Assembly (NCBI GenBank): GCA_041736895.1
Contig: JBGSSS010000210.1
Location: 7,169 to 71,168 of the forward strand
Direction: 5' to 3'
Source of the DNA: Pirellulales bacterium
Lineage (GTDB): Bacteria; Planctomycetota; Planctomycetia; Pirellulales; JALHPA01
DNA length: 64,000 bases
Shown: positions 2,604-63,778 of the stretch, piece after piece
Position numbering within the stretch: position 1 is the stretch's first letter
Layout: the number at the start of each line of letters is the position of its first letter
Program-made: the position numbers and the translations under genes
The notes under the pieces: generated by a model
Seen by the model: the letters and a program-made list of their open reading frames with translations, nothing else
What the model was told of the DNA's origin: nothing
The model's database searches: none

Positions 2604-2965
2604 TCATTTTTTTCTCTGTTGCGCCCAGCGCAACACCCCAGGAGCCTGAAAAACGGGGCAAAAAATGGGGAAAACGCGGGAAAAACCACCGAAAAAGCGC
2701 GGAAAAAACACGAAAAAATCGCAAAAAGATCAGAAAAAAACGCAAAAAGAACGAAAAAATTCAGAAAAAAACGCAACTGTGCGCGCCCCCGATTTCCGGG
2801 TTTAACGGAACACCGATTCGAGCCTTCGCCAGAATCTCGCGGGGAATACCGCAGTCCACGGCTCGCTCGGTCGGGCCAAAGCCGGACAAAGCGTGCGCCG
2901 CGCTATTTTTTTGTGTTGCCTTTAAAGGCAACCTTCGTTGGGCTTTTTCATTACTTCGTGCGCCC
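2604..2965 (+). repeat. phased-A-tract element, copy A
   Basis: About 360 bp, alignable by eye over its length with 44752-45110. 12 A-tracts at 2649-2771. Hairpins at 2618-2634 and 2915-2932. Confidence 0.85.
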
Positions 2966-3216: not shown

Positions 3217-3651
3217 TCAACTCAACGGCGGCGGTGGATAGTGCCTGTTCTTATCGAGCTCTTGACGCGCGTTATATTCCGGCGGCTCGAGCGAAGGAAA
3301 TGGCAGCGAGGGGAGCAGCGAAAACGAATCACTCTGCGCCACACCGAACAGCATGGCAAACAGTTGCACGGCCAATCCGACAAGGAAGCCGACCAAGGTG
3401 CAGCCAAATAGAATCACCAAGGGGATCAAGACGAGCGCCATGACGGTGGAACGTTCACTCCAAGTGGCAGCGTAGATGACGATCGTGATGAACGCTCCGA
3501 ATCCGCCCATCTGAAGCCCAGCGACGATGCCTTGACGCAGGTATTTTGTGTGCGCGGCGGACGCCAATGTGGCGGCACTTGCCGACGGCCGCAGTTCGGC
3601 CTGCGGCGCGGCATAGGGATTCTCCTCCGCAGGTGTTACGTCTTGTGACAT
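3217..3651 (-). CDS. small membrane protein, NPYxxPQ N-terminal motif family (paralog 4)
   Basis: MSQDVTPAEENPYAAPQAEL followed by two hydrophobic helices. ATG at 3651. One of four tandem paralogs. Confidence 0.6.
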   Translation of the reverse strand: MSQDVTPAEENPYAAPQAELRPSASAATLASAAHTKYLRQGIVAGLQMGGFGAFITIVIYAATWSERSTVMALVLIPLVILFGCTLVGFLVGLAVQLFAMLFGVAQSDSFSLLPSLPFPSLEPPEYNARQELDKNRHYPPPPLS

Positions 3652-3664
3652 GGGAATTATTCTC

Positions 3665-4021
3665 TCAATCATCCACTTCAAGCAACTGGTACGGTCTTCG
3701 CCAGCCGAAATCTTGCAGCATGCGATCGGTGATGGCGGCGACCGCGCCGAGCAATAACCCGCCAACAATGCAGACAGGTAAGGCAACGATGATATAGACG
3801 AACGCCATCAATAGCCAATAACCCGGCAGTTGCCAGCCCATCCGCATGATGAGATACATTACCAGACAGCAGCCTGCTAGAAAGCCAAGCTGATAGCCGT
3901 GTTGCATGAAATACCAGCGAGTCTCGTTCGTCCGAGTCGGTGCGGCAGCATGTTCTGCGGCGATGAGCTGTGTCTGCGGGGAAGTATAAGGATTCTCCTG
4001 CGCATGTTTGGATTCATTCAC
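3665..4021 (-). CDS. small membrane protein, NPYxxPQ N-terminal motif family (paralog 3)
   Basis: GTG start at 4021 overlaps the stop of the upstream paralog (GTGA). MNESKHAQENPYTSPQTQL plus two TM helices. Confidence 0.65.
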   Translation of the reverse strand: MNESKHAQENPYTSPQTQLIAAEHAAAPTRTNETRWYFMQHGYQLGFLAGCCLVMYLIMRMGWQLPGYWLLMAFVYIIVALPVCIVGGLLLGAVAAITDRMLQDFGWRRPYQLLEVDD

Positions 4022-4389
4022 GAAGCACCTCGCACTTCTTCGTCGTTGCTTGCAGCAAGACTCGATTCAGCGAACGAATCCGGCATCACCAACACAAAAC
4101 AAGCATACGCGATTCCCCAGGCAAGCCCCAGCACCATCGTCACGACGATGAAGACGCCGGCAATCAACAACAAGTTCTGCGCATTGGCTTGATAGCCGCT
4201 GAGCAGGCGCGCCAGATACAGCAGGATCATCGAGAGCGACGCGACCAGCCCGGCGGTCAAGCCGCGAACCATGCCGCGCCAGAGATACTTCCCCGGGAAG
4301 CGCCGCACGTTGCGGCCATGCGGCTGCTCATTCGCCGCGCGAAGGTTGGTCGTCTGCGGAGCTTCGTAGGCGTTCACTTGTGCTTGCAT
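4018..4389 (-). CDS. small membrane protein, related to the NPYxxPQ family (paralog 2)
   Basis: MQAQVNAYEAPQTTNL plus two TM helices. An alternative in-frame ATG at 4494 would add a DUF1810-derived leader (MNPTPDPHNMQRFLDAQELVY). Confidence 0.55.
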   Translation of the reverse strand: MQAQVNAYEAPQTTNLRAANEQPHGRNVRRFPGKYLWRGMVRGLTAGLVASLSMILLYLARLLSGYQANAQNLLLIAGVFIVVTMVLGLAWGIAYACFVLVMPDSFAESSLAASNDEEVRGAS

Positions 4390-4477
4390 CGTTTGCCCCT
4401 GAGGTCGCGACGGAGAAATGATCGCGCCGCCATAGACCAGTTCTTGCGCGTCGAGGAAGCGTTGCATGTTGTGCGGG

Positions 4478-4819
4478 TCAGGGGTAGGGTTCATCTGTTG
4501 GCGGCTCGTCTTTTGAAGCAAATGATTGCTGTTGGACTCGGGTTCCAGACACGCTTCCTAGATAAAGTCCAATACTGGAACTTAGGATTCCGATCATCGT
4601 GAATGCGATGAGATAGTCGATCGTAGTTCGCGGGCTCGATCGGTGAGTTTTAACTTCAGGTAGATAGAGAGAGGACATTAGCGCGGCGATAAAAATTGCC
4701 GACCAAAACGCGATGCGGCCATTAAACTTGTTTGTGTAGATGACTTTGGGCGGAGCCTTTAGTAGTTCAGCCTGCGGCGCGGCGTAGGGATTATCGAGCG
4801 GAGCCGGTTCGTTGTTCAT
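4478..4819 (-). CDS. small membrane protein, NPYxxPQ N-terminal motif family (paralog 1)
   Basis: MNNEPAPLDNPYAAPQAELL plus two hydrophobic segments. ATG at 4819. Confidence 0.6.
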   Translation of the reverse strand: MNNEPAPLDNPYAAPQAELLKAPPKVIYTNKFNGRIAFWSAIFIAALMSSLYLPEVKTHRSSPRTTIDYLIAFTMIGILSSSIGLYLGSVSGTRVQQQSFASKDEPPTDEPYP

Positions 4820-10390: not shown

Positions 10391-10397
10391 GAAATGC

Positions 10398-21158: not shown

Positions 21159-21164
21159 GCAAAT

Positions 21165-21192
21165 GATAGTTGATAATGGACAATTGACAATG
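21165..21192 (+). repeat. AT-rich heptanucleotide tandem array (GACAATT/GATAATG type)
   Basis: GATAGTT GATAATG GACAATT GACAATG, between the OYE gene stop and the cupin gene start. Confidence 0.75.
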
Positions 21193-21217
21193 AATACGAG
21201 TCGTTGCTTCGTTCTCC

Positions 21218-21275: not shown

Positions 21276-21746
21276 ATGAGCACGACCTCCCTCGCCGGTT
21301 CCGTCTACTCCGTCGTCGGCGACAAGTACGTCTTCCTGACCACCGGCGCGGAGACGAACGGCGCGTATGCCGTGTTCGAGTTCTTCATCCCGCCCGGCGG
21401 TGGTTCACCGCCGCACATGCATACGCGCGAGGACGAGGCGTTTGCGGTGATCGATGGTCAATTCGATTTTCATGTCGCCGGCAAAGTCGAACGTCGTGGC
21501 CCGGGGGAGTATCTCTTCGCGCCGCGGAACATCCCGCATTTCTTTCACAACGTTGGCAAGACGGTCGGGCACATGATCTGTATCGTGACGCCGGCCGGCT
21601 TGGAAAACTTCTTTGCGGAATTTGGGACGCGGCTGGCCTCGCGCGACGCGACGGCGATTCCACCCGGTCCGGAGGAAATCTCGCGGCTTAAGGCCGCCGC
21701 GCCGAAATATGGCCTCGAACTCTTGCCGCCGCCGGAGCAGGATTGA
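21276..21746 (+). CDS. cupin domain-containing protein
   Basis: GGGSPPHMHTREDEAFAVIDGQFDFHV...PRNIPHFFHN cupin motifs 1 and 2. Confidence 0.8.
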   Translation: MSTTSLAGSVYSVVGDKYVFLTTGAETNGAYAVFEFFIPPGGGSPPHMHTREDEAFAVIDGQFDFHVAGKVERRGPGEYLFAPRNIPHFFHNVGKTVGHMICIVTPAGLENFFAEFGTRLASRDATAIPPGPEEISRLKAAAPKYGLELLPPPEQD

Positions 21747-26440: not shown

Positions 26441-26446
26441 AAAAAT

Positions 26447-26514
26447 GGATAATTGACAATTGATTATTGACAATGTGCGAGACACTTGCATTGTCCATTG
26501 TCCATTATCAATTC
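26447..26514. repeat. inverted AT-rich heptamer arrays (hairpin-forming), 3' of the fur-family gene
   Basis: GGATAATT GACAATT GATTATT GACAATG, then a 13-nt loop, then CATTGTC CATTGTC CATTATC AATTC. Between convergent stops at 26440 and 26523. Confidence 0.8.
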
Positions 26515-26522
26515 GATTGCGG

Positions 26523-26969
26523 TTACTTCGGACAACTCCCGCAGTGCCCCTTGAGCAGCACCTCGGTCACTTCGAGCTTCTTCGCCGCTTTGTTCGTCGG
26601 CTTGATCGCGACGTTGACGTCCTCCAGGCACGTCACCTCGCCGCAATCGACGCAGACAAAGTGCGGGTGCTCGAGCGTGCCATCTTGATTTGGCCGCTTG
26701 AGTTCAAACCGATAAAGATGATCGCCGAGTTCGATCCGCGAGACAAGACCCGCGTCCGAGAGCTCGATCAAGTTGCGATAGATCGTCGCGCGGTCAAAGC
26801 CCTTGGACTCGAGCGCGTCAGCCATTTGCGCATGGGTCAGCGGCGAAAGCGCATCGATCAGCATTTGCATGACCCAAAGCCGCGCGGCCGTCGAGCGCAG
26901 ACCCGCCTCGCGGAGTTTCTTGCGGACAATGTCCAGCGAAGGTTCGGCGGCAGCAGGAGGTTTGGGCAT
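26523..26969 (-). CDS. Fur family transcriptional regulator
   Basis: GLRSTAARLWVMQMLID...THAQMADAL...ATIYRNLIELSDAGLV winged helix; HPHFVCVDCG...CGSC metal sites. ATG at 26969; upstream codons are a translated repeat. Confidence 0.85.
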   Translation of the reverse strand: MPKPPAAAEPSLDIVRKKLREAGLRSTAARLWVMQMLIDALSPLTHAQMADALESKGFDRATIYRNLIELSDAGLVSRIELGDHLYRFELKRPNQDGTLEHPHFVCVDCGEVTCLEDVNVAIKPTNKAAKKLEVTEVLLKGHCGSCPK

Positions 26970-26974
26970 CGGGG

Positions 26975-27067
26975 CAATGGATAATTGATAATGGACAATT
27001 GACAATTAAAAACAGCAGCAGCGACAGCTTCCATCATTGTCCATTATCAATTGTCAATTATCAATTG
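26975..27067. repeat. inverted AT-rich heptamer arrays, 5' of the fur-family gene
   Basis: CAATG GATAATT GATAATG GACAATT GACAATT, then a 24-nt spacer, then CATCATTGTC CATTATC AATTGTC AATTATC AATTG. Begins 6 nt upstream of the fur-family ATG. Confidence 0.8.
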
Positions 27068-35765: not shown

Positions 35766-36266
35766 TTACTTCTTCTTCGCCTTCTTCACCGGCTTGGCTT
35801 TCGGGGCTGGCTTTTTTGGCGCTGCCTTTTTCGGGGCGGCCTTCTTGACTGGCGTCGGTTTCTTCATCGCGGCTTTCTTGGCGACGGGCTTCACGGCCTT
35901 GGTCAGTTCGGGCTTCTTGCTCATCGCGCCCGATTTGGTCGTGCCGGCTTTGGCATTGTGGGCGACGCTGCCGACAGAGCTGGTGATCGGCGAGCCGTGC
36001 GCGCTGCCGGGGGTCGGAATCGGGATGGGCATGCCTGGGAGTTGTATGCCTGGCGTTGGATCGACCTTGGTTCCTTCGTGGACGGCCATCTCGGAGGCGT
36101 ATTTTTTGGCCTCAACTTCGGCCTTGCTACGGCGCTTGATGTCCATTCCATGCGCTCGTTTGAATGTCTGAATGTCCTTGAACGTGCCATCGGCTTTACG
36201 GACGGCGTAGAGCTTGGTCCCTTTGCTGGTTCGGAGCGTTGTGCGTTGTGCTTTTTTCTTGGCCAT
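35766..36266 (-). CDS. lysine/alanine/proline-rich histone-H1-like protein (putative nucleoid-associated)
   Basis: ATG at 36266. N-terminus MAKKKAQRTTLRTSKGTKLYAVRKADGTFKDIQTFKRAH. C-terminal tail KKPELTKAVKPVAKKAAMKKPTPVKKAAPKKAAPKKPAPKAKPVKKAKKK. Followed by a perfect terminator. Confidence 0.65.
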   Translation of the reverse strand: MAKKKAQRTTLRTSKGTKLYAVRKADGTFKDIQTFKRAHGMDIKRRSKAEVEAKKYASEMAVHEGTKVDPTPGIQLPGMPIPIPTPGSAHGSPITSSVGSVAHNAKAGTTKSGAMSKKPELTKAVKPVAKKAAMKKPTPVKKAAPKKAAPKKPAPKAKPVKKAKKK

Positions 36267-43415: not shown

Positions 43416-44678
43416 ATGTCTCGCCGTGGGTTTACCCTAGTCGAACTGCTCGTCGTCATTGGGATCATCGGAATCCTCGTGGCGCTGTTGTTGCCCGCCG
43501 TGCAATCGGCCCGCGAATCGAGCCGCCGTTCCCATTGCGCCAACAATGTCAAGCAACTCGGCGTAGCGCTGCACAACTTTCATCAGACCCACCGCCAACT
43601 GCCGACCTACAACGGCATCTTCCCCCTCGCCAAAACCTCGCTCCAATCGGCCAACACCAAACGCGTCTATGGCAGTTGGTTCGTTCATCTGCTCCCGTTT
43701 GTCGAGGAAAAGGCGCTCTACGACAGCATCGCCAACGACGTCCAGAAGTATTCCAACTCCGGCGCGAAGCAAGTCGTCCCCAGCACGCCCGCCTCGGCCG
43801 GCCACTACGAGCCTCCTTGCAAAACTATTAAGGGCGTCCCCGCCACCTACAACCAGTACACGGGCTCGCTCCAACCTGTCACCACCACCAACGGCAACGG
43901 CTACACGATCACCGAGATGAAATGGGTTCCGCCGCGCACCCCGGATCCAGGCACCGGGACACCCGATACCAAGGACTGCACCAACAGCAAGTGGATTCCC
44001 GGCACCTCGGCCGGTCCGCCGATCGAGAACAACGGCTACGTCGGCATCTGGCGGCCGGCTCATCGCAAGCGCACCTTTGCCATCCTCCGCTGCCCCACCG
44101 AACAAACGTCGCCCGATGGCTTGGTCTACAAAGGCGAATGGGGCGCGACGAACTACCTGGCCAACTGGAACTCCTTCACCAATCGGATTGCCAAAGACGG
44201 CTACAAGGCCAAGAACACCAACTTCTCGAAATACGCCGACGGCACCAGCAAGACGCTCCTCCTCGGCGAAGGCTACGCCGTCTGCGAGACCAAAGAGCGC
44301 ACGGCGTTCCTTGCCTGGCACAAAGGCTCCGACGGCGGCTTCTCGAACTACGGCGGCGTCCACAACTTTGGCCTGACCTTTAGCTTTACCGCGGCCCAAC
44401 AGGTCGACAACGGCACCGGCCCGGTCAAAGTTGCCTCGACCAACGGCTTTCCGAACCCCTCGCTCAGCCCCTACCTCGTTTTCCCGATCCAAATCCAACC
44501 GAGCCCCACCGCCACGGGCGACAACGGCTGCACCAGCCTTACCGCCCAGACCCCGCATCAGGTCATGAACACCCTCTATGCCGACGGCTCGGTCCACACG
44601 ATCACCGGCGACATCGACCGCGACCTCTGGGCCACGATGATGCTGCCGAGCGACGGAAAAATCGCAGCGGCCAAGTAG
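43416..44678 (+). CDS. DUF1559 domain protein with prepilin-type N-terminal cleavage/methylation domain
   Basis: [50 protein letters not shown]-terminal ADGSVHTI. Confidence 0.9.
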
Positions 44679-44751
44679 CTTGTTCCAAGGGACCCAACCG
44701 CAGCCTTCCGCCTCCTCAACATTCGTCCGCGTCCAGACAGCCGCGAAAGTG

Positions 44752-45110
44752 TCATTCTTTTTTCCTGTTGCTCCCGGCGCAACACCGCCAGACTCTCGAA
44801 AAACCGGGCAAAGCTGGGAAAAATCCGGGAAACACCACCGAAAACGCGCGAAAAAACCCAAAAAAATCGCAAAAAGATCGGAAAAAAACGCAAAAAGAAC
44901 GAAAAAAATCAGAAAAAAACGCAAATGTGCGCGCCCCCAATGTCCGTGTTTAAACGAACACCGCTTCGAGCGACTACCACAATCCCGCGGGCAAACCACA
45001 CTCGCCGCGCGCCGGGTCAGGCCCAAGCCGGACAAAGCGCGCGCCGCCCGATTTTGGGGTGTTGCCTTAAAAGGCAACACTCGCGGGGCTTTTGGGTCGT
45101 TCGTCGCCGC
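44752..45110 (+). repeat. phased-A-tract element, copy B
   Basis: Same orientation and architecture as copy A. A-tracts at 44799-44919. Hairpins at 44767-44783 and 45061-45078. Confidence 0.85.
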
Positions 45111-45112
45111 CT

Positions 45113-45217
45113 GTAGGTCCCGCGGTCCTCCGCGGGACCTGGTGCGGGGGGACGCGTGACGTGTCCTCTCGCGGCGTCCAACGCCGCACCGGGTCCCGGT
45201 CTCCGACCGGGACCTAC
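45113..45217. repeat. REPIN-like inverted doublet (GTAGG head)
   Basis: GTAGGTCCCGCGGTCCTCCGCGGGACC (45113-45139) and GGTCCCGGTCTCCGACCGGGACCTAC (45192-45217). Confidence 0.55.
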
Positions 45218-45729
45218 AACGTGCCTGCGCGCGCCTATTCCGGCCATTCTCTTTACACGCAGTATTCATATGAACACAACCGCTGGCCCAAAATCAACCC
45301 CCCACGGAGGTAAAAAAGGGGTTCAAGGTAAAAAAGGAAGGTAAAAAAGGGGTCAGAATGTCTGCCCCCTTACTCGCGGGGAAAGAGCCTTAAATCCAAG
45401 GTTATTTCCCACGATGTCATGGAGAAAAAAGAGGGCAGAACTATTTCATCAATTTTTCGGACTTCTTTTCTCCTCCGCCAAATTTCTAGAAGCCTTTGGG
45501 TTTTCCGCCTGAAATATTGTTCGATTTGCCAACGGGGCCTGTCTATAATCAAGCTTTCTCAAGGCGGCAAGGGAGCGATGCGGCAGAATCATTTCGGAGT
45601 GAAACAAGGTTAGGTGGAGCGCGAGGGGAAGCGTTTCCAGAGTGCCGGATCTGAGAATCGCCGCGCAGATGCTGCAACACAATTACGCGCTGGTCAAGTA
45701 CAACACCTAGGACTTGGGCTGGTCAGGAG

Positions 45730-48700
45730 ATGACGATGAGAATCACTTGCAATTCTCTGTTCAGGAACAGCACCTTATTTGTAGGGTGTATTTTATTTTG
45801 GGCTTTGTTCGTTGGAATTTCGAGCCAGGGACTTGCCCAACAAGTTCGCCCCAACATCATCCATATCTTGGCCGACGATCTCGGCTGGGGGAGCGTGGGG
45901 TTTAATAATCCGACAACCTACATTCAAACACCAAACCTCGATGCCTTGGCCATTGGCGGGATGGCGTTGTCGCGTTCTTACGCACCGACAGTTTGTTCCC
46001 CGACACGCGCTAGCCTGATGACGGGCTTCCATAATGGCCGGGCTTTCAACGATCGGAATGGGAATATTGCCGCGGGTCTTCGTGCTGAGGATGTCACGGT
46101 AGCCAACGTCTTGAATGATGCTGGCTATCGGACGGCGGTTGTCGGCAAATGGGGTTGGGGAGCGGACAATGCCGCTTCCCCCGCAATCAATAATTCAGGG
46201 ACTCTCCCAGCGAATCAGGGGTTCGATCAGTTCTATGGCTACTTGAATCACACCAGTGCCCATGATTACTACTATCCTCAGATGTGGCAATCCTCGGCGT
46301 TGGGCGGTCCCACGGTCACAAGCCCCAACAATGGCGGACCAGGCGGCGCGGCGCAATATACCCACGATCTCTTCACGCGCAGCACCGAAGCCTTTGTTCG
46401 GGATAACGCGACGGCGAGCCAGCCATTCTACCTGCAAGTCAGTTACACGATTCCCCATTTCAGTTTGAGCGACGTGGATGCCGCGCCGGCGCTGGTCAAT
46501 CTCGCGAACCAAACGATCTATCCCGGCGGTCAGGCACAATACGCGGCGAACGCCAGTCTGAGTACGGCCGAGAAGCGGCACGCCGCCATGATCTCGAGGA
46601 TGGATGCCTCGATCGGCTCCTTGATGCAGCGCTTGCAAGATCCGAACGGAGACGGCAATACGGCCGACTCGATCCTGAACAATACACTGATTCTCTTTAC
46701 CTCGGATAATGGCGCGTCGGCCGAAGGACTCGGCGCAACGGCCGCGGCGAGCAATGCGATTTCCGGCGGTTTGCGCGGCGGGAAACGGGATTTGTATGAA
46801 GGTGGAATTCGAATGCCCACGATTGCCTTTTGGCAAGGAACGATTGCCGCCGGTTCGAGTTCCGCCATCACAACGGACGTCGCCGACTTCCAGGCAACCG
46901 CTGCGGAACTGGCTGGCGGAAAAGCTCGCGTCGGCACCGATGGCGTTTCCATCCTGCCAACTCTGCTGGGAACTCCGGGGCAGCGCAATCGCGGCGGTTT
47001 GCTGTTCGAGAACTTTGAAAACAGCCAGTACGGGCAAAAGAATTCCGATTGGGCCGTGGTGCGGGATGATTACAAGTTGATCAAGTTTCGCGACGGCACC
47101 TTCGAACTCTACAACGTCACGACGGATCAAGGCGAAGCAGCCCCACTCAATCTAAGCATTCCGGCCAATGCAAACCTGCGCGCTGAACTCGAAGCTTTTG
47201 CGCTCCGGCAGGGAGCAGGCCAAGCCGACAGCTATGCGGTGGGTTTTCGTGATTGGAAAGGCGCGAATGGCGCGGACCTGGCGAGCCCTGCCAACTACGA
47301 AGTCACCAATGATCCGACGGCCAGCGTGGGGCCAGTTGCCGAAACATGGTCGGCACTCATTGAAAACCGCTCGGGTTCGCCGCAGTCTGCCAGGATGTCG
47401 AGCAGCGTCACGGTTCTCGGCCTCGAGGTCAGCGGCACAACACACCAGCAAGAGGTCGACATTCGCCCCAGCACGATCTTGACCGGCCGCAACGAGGTTC
47501 GAATTGGCAGTCATGGCAAGATTCAACTGACCAACGCCGAACTCCAATCGGATCGTTGGCTCGATCTGCAAGCGGGCGGCGTGCTGACAGGTCAGGGGAC
47601 GATCCGTGGGGATGTTTATCACAGCGGCACCATCAAACCGGGGTTCGATGGCGTCATGGGAACTCCTCCGCCGCCGCCGGTAACTGGCGGAACATTTAAT
47701 GTCGCGCTCGATTTTTCTGCAATCGATAATCGAGCCGGCAAAGACCTCGTCTACACCCCGCTGATCAGAACAATCGATCAGGGGGTGGTGAGCTTGGATT
47801 ACGGTCCATCCATCGGCTCCCGGCTCCTCGATCGCGGCTTCAACGATTTTGCCAGTGAGTTCAATCTCCAGAATTGGACAGTCGGCGGGACGCTGCAAGA
47901 TGCGATCAACGACAATGCTTTTGTAAGCATCACGGTCGATCCCACGGAGGGTCTGGCGGTATCGTTGCAGTCGGTCAAATTCAACTTCTGGAGGAATGGC
48001 GCCAACTCTCCGTCGCAATACGCCATCTCAACCAATCTCGACGGCTTTAATGCAAGCTCGCCTTTGGCAACCACCTCGGTAACAACTTCTGGCTCGGCAA
48101 ACACCGTTCAATTTCAGGCCAGCGGAACCGGTTTGTCGACCCGCGAGCAACTGGCGGTACGCCTGTATGGCTGGGGAGCAGGAAACATCAATGGCCATAC
48201 GCATTTAACCGGCGCAGCCCTCGATCTCCTCTTTACGACGGTCTCGGAAATCCCGCTAGCGCCCGCCGGCGTACTCACCATCGAAGGCGATTTGATCCAT
48301 ACGGCCTCGAGCAAGATCGAAATCGGCGTGGGAGGGTTCGACAACTCGAATATCAATGCGCGCGAGTTCGACTTGATTCAAGTGATGGGCGATGTCAATT
48401 TGCTCGGGGAGCTAATGCTCTTTGCTGAGGACGGCTTTGTTTTGGCTGGCGAGTCCCAGTTTACTTTCCTCACCGCCGATGCCGTTACCGGGAGTTTTTC
48501 CAGCTTCGAAGCCATCGGCTTTGATGGTTACAACGTCTCGCTGGTATACGGAAGCAATTCGGTATCCGCCAAGTTTACCCCAGTCCCCGAACCAAGCACC
48601 GTCCTGCTCGTGCTCGCCTGCGGCGGTTACTTGATCGTCAAACGACGTCGCGGATTAGAAAAAGGGGTCAGGCCCCTTTTTCTTGTTGACCGCGGCGGTG

Positions 48701-48762: not shown

Positions 48763-48814
48763 AAAACTCGGCCTGGAATCGACCCTCCGCCCCCGCGGCC
48801 GACCCAAGAAACCC

Positions 48815-48838
48815 GAAAAAGGGGCCTGACCCCTTTTC
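48815..48838. repeat. GAAAAAGGGGCCTGACCCCTTTTC hairpin repeat
   Basis: Inverted relative to 48658-48682. Between convergent genes. Confidence 0.65.
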
Positions 48839-48871
48839 CTCCCCCTTTCCGTTTGTTCCGTTTGAGCGTGT

Positions 48872-50917: not shown

Positions 50918-50930
50918 ATGGCCGAACCCA

Positions 50931-50953
50931 ATAAAGGGGCCTGACCCCTTTTC
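50931..50953. terminator. AAAGGGG-CCTGA-CCCCTTTT hairpin (terminator-like dispersed repeat)
   Basis: 14 nt after the AraC-family stop. Same hairpin at 48658-48682 (inverted loop) and 48815-48838. Confidence 0.65.
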
Positions 50954-51064
50954 TTCTCAAAGCTGCCTCAAATTCAAGGTTAATTCCCACGATTTCAAAC
51001 GTCCGCGGGAATATACTAATAGTCTGCCTGAATTCGGCCTGCCGCGGAGCAACTCGCCGCGCGG

Positions 51065-55659: not shown

Positions 55660-55761
55660 AGCTCCGAAGGAGCGGCATTGTGTAGCCAGGGGTGTAAGCC
55701 CCTGGTTGACTTCACCAGGGGCTTGCACCCCTGGCTACATTCCTTCGCTCCTTCGGAGCTT
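55660..55761. repeat. nested ~100-nt palindrome containing a GTAGCC-headed doublet
   Basis: AGCTCCGAAGGAGCG...GTAGCCAGGGGTGTAAGCCCCTGG...CCAGGGGCTTGCACCCCTGGCTAC...CGCTCCTTCGGAGCT. Confidence 0.6.
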
Positions 55762-61612: not shown

Positions 61613-61695
61613 CAAAAAACGGGCGACGGATTCCAATATGAAATCAGTCACCCGCATGGTTTTTTGTCAGTTTGCTAAGCGGCGAAGCGGCGGGG
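61613..61695 (-). repeat. ~85-bp repeated terminator-containing element, copy 1
   Basis: CAAAAAACGGGCGACGGATTCCAATATGAAATCAGTCACCCGCATGGTTTTTTGTCAGTTTGCTAAGCGGCGAAGCGGCGGGG, downstream of the stop at 61786. Confidence 0.7.
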
Positions 61696-63597: not shown

Positions 63598-63686
63598 TGT
63601 TTCGTCTCCGCCGAATGAAAGCTATTGAGTTGAAGCTCGTTGCCAGCGTTCCCGAAAAATTTTATAGTTTCCTAGGTCATTCTACA

Positions 63687-63778
63687 CAAAAAATGGGCGA
63701 CTGATTCCAATATGAAATCAGTCACCCGCATAGTTTTTTGACAGATTGCTAGGCGGCGAAACGGTGGGTGCATTGACG
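63687..63778 (-). repeat. ~85-bp repeated terminator-containing element, copy 2
   Basis: CAAAAAATGGGCGACTGATTCCAATATGAAATCAGTCACCCGCATAGTTTTTTGACAGATTGCTAGGCGGCGAAACGGTGGG, downstream of the stop at 63794. Confidence 0.7.

Follow-up and report, generated by a model that had tools for sequence, protein, structure and literature searches.

A bacterial interspersed repeat with a helically phased array of twelve A-tracts between two palindromic end modules

Introduction

In BIME-1 elements, the linker that joins the two REPs often contains a site for IHF (PMC3333891), IHF also binds to Correia elements (PMC2649163, PMC2229807), and the periodicity of A-tracts in prokaryotes has been reviewed (PMC3940949, PMC3431218). 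Here we analyze a repeat from the chromosome of a Pirellulales bacterium, located in a stretch of 64,000 nucleotides (GenBank assembly GCA_041736895.1, contig JBGSSS010000210.1, positions 7,169 to 71,168 of the forward strand) that is referred to as the window throughout. The two copies of this element in the window, copy A and copy B, each carry an array of A-tracts spaced at the helical repeat of DNA. The arrays had been pointed out in an earlier note made from the letters of the sequence alone, which had proposed that they curve the DNA and had listed a curved architectural site, an upstream promoter activator and an A-rich RNA as possible roles. In its general plan the element is like BIME-1/RIP of E. 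coli: it is intergenic, non-coding and repeated, and two short palindromes flank the site of a sharp bend, which here is a predicted one.

Phased arrays of a dozen A-tracts are textbook material from kinetoplast minicircles and from synthetic DNA, and it is well known that phased A-tracts occur upstream of promoters and that some nucleoid proteins favor curved or A-tract DNA. In designed systems, A-tract bends stabilize the loops that the Lac repressor forms between two operators. To our knowledge, no bacterial interspersed repeat built around such an array has been described. Our reading of the locus, to which we give a probability of about 0.75, is that the element is a lineage-specific, non-coding interspersed repeat of some 343 bp that acts as DNA, with a near-ideal static bend placed between two palindromic end modules.

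Results

The array of copy A (positions 2649 to 2771, plus strand) is made of 12 A-runs, each of four to seven residues, which start at 2649, 2660, 2671, 2681, 2692, 2703, 2713, 2723, 2734, 2744, 2754 and 2765. The spacings between these starts are 11, 11, 10, 11, 11, 10, 10, 11, 10, 10 and 11, with a mean of 10.55 bp, and on recounting we obtained exactly the starts and spacings of the earlier note. For copy B (44799 to 44919, plus strand), A-runs are present at all 12 of the positions given there, with a mean spacing of 10.36 bp over the 12; the runs at 44810 and 44830 are A3 only, which leaves 10 runs of at least four residues plus two A3, all of them in phase. The resultant-vector strength R of the tract centers reaches its maximum of 0.94 at a period of 10.55 bp in copy A (0.38 at 10.0 bp) and of 0.95 at 10.45 bp in copy B (0.52 at 10.0 bp), so that the helical phasing of the A-tracts proposed before is borne out in both copies. 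Conservation of the phase in another copy had been named in advance as a test of that proposal, and it was found in copy B, the sole copy available for such a test. A scan for chains of at least five runs of A≥4 or T≥4, in which each start follows the previous one within 13 bp, returned the two arrays as its sole matches in the window. When sliding windows of 130 bp were counted on both strands, 12,740 out of 12,774 (99.7%) carried four such runs or fewer, and the other 34, with 5 to 12 runs, form a tail that is consistent with overlapping windows over the two arrays. The arrays are composed of 57% A and 5% T, the window having 57% G+C, and TRF detects in them degenerate tandem units of about 10.5 bp, with periods of 11, 21 and 22 in copy A and of 10, 11, 21 and 31 in copy B.

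Curvature was calculated from dinucleotide wedges with three parameter sets, namely AA-wedge, Bolshoy-Trifonov and De Santis; the absolute values given here are approximate. Whichever of the three models is used, no site in the 64 kb is predicted to be more curved than the two arrays, which is the outcome of the curvature prediction that the earlier note had proposed as a check. The array peaks amount to 60–74 degrees per 30 bp (62–74 in copy A), relative to a window median of 11–14 and a 99th percentile of 34–42. The ratio of end-to-end distance to contour length is 0.38–0.54 for the copy A array and 0.35–0.54 for 141-bp array segments of both copies; among the controls, an ideal (A6N4-5)n repeat gave 0.27–0.37, the same tracts after de-phasing 0.98, shuffled sequences 0.93–0.95 and the median window 0.97–0.98. 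In these models the arrays appear about as curved as the ideal synthetic A6 repeat, and from the ratios of 0.35–0.54 it is estimated that some 130 bp should be bent through more than half a circle, as a static arc of roughly 200–250 degrees. The tracts recur every 10–11 bp and the predicted curvature vanishes on de-phasing, as expected of phased A-tract curved DNA. A secondary peak of predicted curvature lies at 63673.

Each array forms the core of a larger unit, an interspersed repeat of modular build that has sharp boundaries and carries a palindrome module near either end; this organization had previously been overlooked. Copy A (2604 to 2947, plus strand, 344 bp) and copy B (44752 to 45093, plus strand, 342 bp) are the only two copies within the window and share the same orientation; BLAST finds them 82.7% identical over 342 bp, and a MAFFT alignment of the bounded element gives 80% identity, with 274 identical columns out of 344, 67 mismatches and 3 gap columns. 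Identity within the element ranges from 69 to 94%, being 69% in the first 45 bp, 74% in the 5′ half of the array, 94% in the 3′ half of the array with its junction, 70% in the GC-rich middle and 83% in the 3′ module. It drops to 34% in the left flank and to 33–41% beyond 2947, the level of shuffled sequences. A two-copy element of about 360 bp had been described here before: the repeat is real and its copies have the same orientation as stated, but the similarity stops at 2947 and 45093 rather than at 2965 and 45110, and an extension to the latter positions was ruled out, since the outer flanks are no closer to each other than shuffles. The part best conserved between the copies is the 3′ half of the array, and A is under-represented among the differences, with 14 mismatches out of 67 as compared to 33% of positions.

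Read from its left end, the element has first a T-run and a palindrome of the form TGTTGC-N7-8-GCAAC; the A-tract array comes next, then a GC-rich segment in which one hairpin is conserved, and lastly a second T-run with its palindrome. The module of T-run plus palindrome occurs twice per element, in direct orientation and about 295 bp apart. In copy A, a T7 run at 2607 to 2613 (plus strand) stands ahead of the 5′ palindrome TGTTGCGC-cca-GCGCAACA at 2617 to 2635, forming end module 1, and another T-run at 2906–2912 precedes the 3′ palindrome TGTTGCCtttaaaGGCAAC, that is TGTTGCC-tttaaa-GGCAAC, at 2914 to 2932; 13 nt separate the 5′ palindrome from the left edge of this copy, and 15 nt separate the 3′ palindrome from its right edge. 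In copy B, the T-runs are at 44758–44763 and 45052–45055, the 5′ palindrome TGTTGCTCccgGCGCAACA at 44766 to 44784 differs from that of copy A in its inner stem by one change that is not compensated, and the 3′ palindrome reads TGTTGCC-ttaaaa-GGCAAC (45060 to 45078). All four palindromes have the same outer half-sites, TGTTGC and GCAAC, and within the palindromes the copies differ only in the sequence that these enclose. When the window was scanned for TGTTGC-N3-12-GCAAC, seven matches were obtained, all inside the element copies; 0.62 would be expected, and 0 of 100 shuffles reach seven.

Between the array and the second module lies the GC-rich segment (2772 to 2905), whose stretch from 2791 to 2870 is the least conserved part, at 70% identity. 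A conserved hairpin, seen by alignment and folding, follows at 2870 to 2887 in copy A (GTCgGGCcaaaGCCgGAC, with the structure GTC-g-GGC-caaa-GCC-g-GAC), and the aligned hairpin of copy B, GTC-a-GGC-ccaa-GCC-g-GAC at 45017 to 45034, has its changes in the loop and in the 1x1 mismatch, with the stem unchanged. Two terminator-like sites were also detected. On the minus strand, at the junction of array and GC-rich segment (2771 to 2784), a weak 5-bp hairpin GCGCAcagtTGCGT followed by T7 was matched by the scan in both copies, the count of such matches being within chance expectation. On the plus strand, AGCGTGcgcCGCGCT followed by A and T7 was matched at 2890 to 2912 in copy A only, its T7 being also the T-run of end module 2; the copy B counterpart (AGCGCGCGCCGCCCGATTTTGGGG) was not detected by the terminator scan.

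The edges of the copies carry short repeated motifs. Near the right end of copy A is GGGCTTTT (2940–2947, plus strand), and the TTCATT at its right boundary (2947 to 2952, plus strand) repeats the TTCATT at its left boundary (2603–2608). Copy B is bordered by GTCATTC (44751–44757) and by GTCGTTC (45097–45103), the latter standing three G's (GGG) beyond the end of the copy. These boundary repeats resemble target-site duplications and may reflect insertion at a preferred TCATT-like target; alternatively, the motif may be part of the element itself, and the logic of the contig breaks described next puts ATT (2606–2608) inside the shared sequence.

Logan short-read contigs from the runs SRR28170465 and SRR28170466, recovered by exact-protein look-up, are 100% identical to the window. 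Around copy A the left-hand contigs stop at 2635 and 2606 and the right-hand ones, in both runs, at 2761, and positions 2636–2760, which are essentially the array, are unassembled. At copy B, a contig that starts out from the DUF1559 gene extends across ten A-tracts to 44910, and the next contig to the right starts at 45139. Since the copy B contig spans ten A-tracts, the tracts alone do not stop the assembler. The longest exact run common to copies A and B is 27 nt and they have no 31-mer in common, so that the two copies cannot break a graph with k=31 against each other. If the Logan assemblies were built with k=31, as we take them to have been, the contig end at 2635 implies another locus that is identical from 2606 onward, and the ends at 2761 imply identity up to 2790; further copies elsewhere would then share 2606–2790 and the sequence from 44880 onward. 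These contig ends point to at least one or two further copies outside the window, which would be more similar than copies A and B are to each other.

The window represents an ordinary Planctomycetota chromosome, with genes for DUF1559/N-methyl proteins, DUF1501, DUF1549/1553, sulfatases, KsgA, riboflavin synthase, Fur, an ECF sigma factor and a Ser/Thr kinase. About 45 open reading frames (ORFs) of the window were scanned against Pfam, and no partition gene was found among them; no tRNA or tmRNA was found either. Two details of the context given before are confirmed: the start of the minus-strand DUF1810 gene is at 2523, which places the copy A array 126–248 bp upstream of it, and copy B lies in a gene-free gap, measured here as 1.05 kb, that is bounded by the end of a DUF1559 gene at 44678 and the start of a sulfatase gene at 45730–45736. 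Copy A is located between two minus-strand genes and copy B between two plus-strand genes, while the element keeps the same orientation, and the element is thus not tied to the direction of neighboring transcription. A template/variable pair of a diversity-generating retroelement was also considered and was ruled out, with only 14 of the 67 mismatches at A and no reverse transcriptase among the scanned ORFs.

Relatives of the element were sought in several collections. In a collection of genome contigs, from which the source genome is evidently absent, the pattern AAGCCGGACAAAGCG-N15-40-TGTTGC gave 16 chance matches in unrelated phyla, with nothing alike beyond the pattern. In metagenome contigs, the pattern AAAAACGCAANTGTGCGCGCCCC had no match, and the architecture pattern TTTTTNNNTGTTGC-N5-10-GCAACACC-N5-22-GAAAAA had two chance matches without arrays. 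Three scans of viral contigs with the two palindromes and the mid-element hairpin returned chance matches inside coding regions, and a blastn search of plasmids and phages at the 'distant' setting returned no match. One match to the architecture pattern, at 1576–1627 of the metagenome contig Ga0058698_10013071 (JGI), has an unexpectedly long stretch in common with the left end of the element (GTTTTTTTCTCTGTTGCctgtgGCAACACCTGAAAC); the likeness was judged coincidental, the surroundings being AT-rich and without an A-tract array. Loci of phosphatidylserine decarboxylase were compared as well. Homologues of this protein place the organism in the Pirellulales, the closest being 90% identical and the others at most 75%, and neither the element nor an A-tract array is present at three related Pirellulales loci, two of which come from family-level relatives and cover ~21 kb each; the third, a 3.05-kb contig from the 90%-identical relative, stops short of the orthologous position. 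Literature searches on A-tract phasing, whether in Planctomycetes or in repeat elements of bacteria, yielded nothing relevant. The element breaks short-read assemblies of its lineage and is therefore probably under-represented in databases, which may explain the missing relatives.

Several further features of the window were recorded. An inverted pair of GTAG-headed palindromes at 45113–45217 (GTAGGTCCCGCGGtcctCCGCGGGACC; on the other strand GTAGGTCCCGGTCggaGACCGGGACC), 20 bp to the right of copy B, is REPIN/BIME-like and distinct from the element, and since a contig of the same strain starts inside it at 45139, this pair is probably repeated elsewhere in the genome. In the same gene-free gap, GGTAAAAAAGG occurs three times in 50 bp at 45300–45350. 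The Rfam family Acido-Lenti-1 RNA has matches at 55660–55705 (minus strand) and 55715–55760 (plus strand), with 46.3 and 39.3 bits (gathering score 37), forming an inverted doublet 9 nt apart; on the complementary strand they read GTAG and then a CCAGGGG...CCCCTGG palindrome, so that the 'sRNA' motif looks REP/REPIN-type here, and related CCCAGGGG-N-CCCCTGGG hairpins are present at 10392, 28976 and 57982. To the right of copy A, the minus-strand region 3217–4819 encodes three or four paralogous small membrane proteins with NPYAAPQAEL-type N-termini, and the ORF at 4018–4521 carries a DUF1810-like N-terminal fragment whose DNA is 82% identical to 2451–2510. Arrays of 7-bp repeats (ATTGTCA / TGATAAT type) at 26442–26510 and 26974–27067 flank a minus-strand Fur-family gene at 26523–27005 (PF01475, E=1.6e-12), and a similar array at 21159–21194 lies upstream of a cupin gene at 21276; these arrays look like Fur-box arrays, which suggests autoregulation. 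A direct repeat of 82 nt, 90% identical, is found at 61613–61694 and 63687–63768, 2 kb apart, and three copies of an A-run / GGGGCCTGACCCC hairpin / T-run arrangement at 48653–48684, 48810–48841 and 50925–50956 have the appearance of bidirectional terminators.

Discussion

A repeat that acts as DNA has to be weighed against readings in which the arrays are translated, are transcribed into a functional RNA, or serve the host in another way. It is extremely improbable that they are low-complexity sequence that arose by chance or that they belong to a translated gene for a Lys-rich protein. The two copies are indeed spanned by ORFs of 175 and 159 amino acids, and none of the three plus-strand frames is interrupted within the array, but the frames are open only because T, and hence stop codons, are nearly absent, and indels shift the frame so that the two copies are read in different frames. 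In the stretch that does share a frame (KKSQKD...VRAP..RV*), five of five substitutions are non-synonymous, and a search of a 5.8-billion-protein set, with the 175-amino-acid ORF and then with the six frames joined, gave no scoring match. The frame-shifting indels and the wholly non-synonymous shared frame rule out a coding role, and the earlier statement that no conserved gene explains the arrays holds; with regard to chance, only the array windows come plausibly near to 12 phased tracts when 99.7% of all sliding windows have four runs or fewer. Quite unlikely, too, is a small non-coding RNA gene in at least two paralogous copies. The plus strand would give an A-rich RNA with a GC-rich structured 3′ domain, for example a sponge for Hfq or S1, and the minus strand a GC-rich RNA ending at the GCGCA...TGCGT hairpin with U7. 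Such an RNA would account for the placing of every tract as A on one strand with only 5% T, for the conservation of the local hairpins, for the plus-strand terminator-like site of copy A (a 6-bp stem and then T7) and for the weak minus-strand hairpin followed by T7 in both copies. The plus strand of copy A folds with z=-2.2, and 0 of 100 shuffles fold as well, but the other three folds have z-scores of only -1.0 (copy A, minus), -1.1 (copy B, plus) and -0.9 (copy B, minus). RNAalifold counts 5 double-sided changes among the plus-strand pairs and 2 on the minus strand, which, coming from two sequences, mean little and are not informative. The T-depletion of the spacers was set aside as evidence for RNA, 6 T in ~56 spacer bases being a mild deficit and not decisive. 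Rfam assigned the element to no family at the gathering score or at E up to 10, no sigma-70-like promoter was found inside or adjoining either copy, and, with flanks that are unrelated, a promoter would have to be internal. Moreover, no terminator is conserved between the copies, the plus-strand site being good in copy A and decayed in copy B, the change in the palindrome stem is uncompensated, and a period of 10.5 nt is not known to mean anything in RNA. The A-rich RNA that had been listed among the possible roles gains little from these results.

The element might instead be a host regulatory or architectural site that was duplicated and is not mobile, either a curved activating region or a nucleation site for a nucleoid protein (H-NS-like, HU or H1-like Lys-rich) that acts on a gene such as DUF1810; we regard this as unlikely. 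The extreme predicted curvature, the array upstream of the DUF1810 start in copy A, the precedents of promoter-upstream A-tracts and of proteins that prefer curved DNA, and an H1-like protein encoded within the window are all in keeping with it. The gene for this protein, at 35766–36266 on the minus strand, specifies a Lys/Ala/Pro-rich product with an H1-like KKAAPKK tail (KKAAPKKAAPKKPAPKAKPVKKAKKK), is partly made of a 15-bp tandem repeat and has no Pfam match; a link between it and the element is pure speculation. However, copy B has no DUF1810-like gene, the corresponding side being the 3′ end of the convergent DUF1559 gene, and it is the entire 343 bp, with the end palindromes and the GC-rich part, that is repeated with sharp edges and not the bend alone. 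The contig breaks suggest near-identical extra copies, to which spreading is a better fit than an ancient duplication, and the element is absent from the ~21-kb phosphatidylserine decarboxylase neighborhoods of the two family-level relatives. The same applies to the upstream promoter activator put forward in the earlier note: it suits copy A, but copy B has no downstream gene in the equivalent direction, and the orientation of the element is the same between gene pairs on opposite strands. Among the roles named in that note, a candidate curved architectural or protein-binding site fits best. An iteron- or centromere-like array, in which the 10–11-bp units (consensus ~CGCAAAAAGA) would be recognized sequence-specifically by a cooperative protein placed along a single face of the helix, in the manner of the parC arrays of type II partition systems, with the curvature as a by-product, is very unlikely. 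The degenerate tandem units of 11, 21 and 31 bp reported by TRF, the start of most units with CG or CA and their common A-run, and the 94% conservation of the 3′ half of the array would agree with it; yet the units are only 63–86% alike, what is conserved in them is in essence the A-run, neither copy has a ParR/ParM, RHH or Rep-like gene next to it, and the location is chromosomal and intergenic, in several copies.

We therefore return to the non-coding repeat that acts as DNA. In the mechanism that we propose for it, the 123-bp array of 12 A-tracts would be a built-in static bend of roughly 200–250 degrees, which would pre-fold the short element and bring the palindromic end modules, ~295 bp apart, together for a cognate protein. 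This protein could be a transposase or recombinase that spreads the element, or else a DNA-binding protein of the host. The meeting of the two modules is a tentative suggestion, made by analogy with BIME-1 and Correia elements, where this task falls to an IHF site between the two REPs or inside the element; the structural claim and the folding mechanism, taken together, stand at somewhat less than even odds. Several points weigh against this interpretation. The distance between the palindromes is 297.5 bp in copy A and 294.5 bp in copy B, a shift of 3 bp, so that the modules do not keep exactly the same helical phase relative to each other in both copies. The curvature, too, is predicted from models. 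Terminal inverted repeats are absent at the very ends, where the left end TTTTTCTCTGTTGC and the reverse-complemented right end AAAAGCCCAACGAAGGTTGC match only in the core of the subterminal palindrome, and no transposase, reverse transcriptase or Y1/HUH gene was found among the ORFs scanned. Two copies are seen directly, the extra ones being deduced from contig ends alone; no family member was found elsewhere in the collections searched, and the conservation of phase has been compared across two copies only. Finally, the placing of all tracts as A on one strand could instead indicate a strand-specific role, either as RNA or as single-stranded DNA.

If the bend is real, the element would provide a compact natural test case for intrinsic shape that replaces bending proteins in synapsis, looping or nucleoid organization, for the question of which proteins of the Planctomycetota, a poorly studied phylum, read curved DNA, and for how short mobile elements overcome the stiffness of DNA.

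How the element relates to described families can be judged from its ends and its bend. Compared to BIME-1, in which the bend is induced by a protein and the palindromes lie tens of bp apart, the predicted bend is here intrinsic, with 12 tracts over ~123 bp, and the palindromes are ~295 bp apart. The palindromes also lack the 5′ GTAG (or CGTC) tag of REP, BIME and REPIN sequences, being preceded by T-runs plus CTC or G, and the modules are in direct orientation, not an inverted REP/iREP pair. With the Correia elements of Neisseria and other MITEs, which are 100–400 bp long, non-coding and intergenic, the element shares its occurrence in either orientation relative to genes, an internal architectural site (that of IHF in Correia, a putative one here) and possible short flanking direct repeats; unlike these, its symmetry is limited to two subterminal palindromes, without terminal inverted repeats, it has no known parent insertion sequence, and two copies have been seen. 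It resembles the PATE elements derived from IS200/IS605 in its same-strand, subterminal palindromes capable of forming hairpins, its lack of terminal inverted repeats and its TCATT-like boundary motif. It differs from them in that the ORFs scanned here gave no match to a Y1 transposase, in that the boundary motif stands on both sides like a target duplication, which the IS200/IS605 family, inserting 3′ of a fixed tetra- or pentanucleotide, does not make, and in that its single stem change between the copies is uncompensated. Because it has neither the terminal inverted repeats of a MITE nor the GTAG tag and inverted pairing of REP/BIME, we do not file the element in these families; with that derived from IS200/IS605, in which it is likewise not filed, it agrees in structure only.

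The bend itself has its nearest likenesses outside the bacterial repeats. Curved upstream activating regions also have phased A-tracts upstream of a gene start, as copy A has with DUF1810, but they usually comprise 3–5 tracts at a recognizable promoter, whereas the element has 12 tracts and no recognizable promoter, and copy B has no corresponding gene. In its A4–7 tracts on one strand, its G/C spacers and its 10.5-bp period, the array matches the classical curved DNA of kinetoplast minicircles and (A5-6N5)n repeats, and in the AA-wedge model its curvature equals that of ideal A6; the designed A-tract bends at lac operators likewise have two palindromic sites on either side of a phased bend. 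As compared to both, the element is a natural bacterial chromosomal repeat, its curvature is predicted and its looping protein hypothetical. It is conceivable, although unlikely at present, that it stands for a new class of bacterial interspersed repeats, in which the element's own A-tract arc of ~120 bp replaces IHF or HU and pre-folds ~340 bp for a recombinase or a looping protein; such a class would be the natural counterpart of the engineered, A-tract-stabilized repressor loops.

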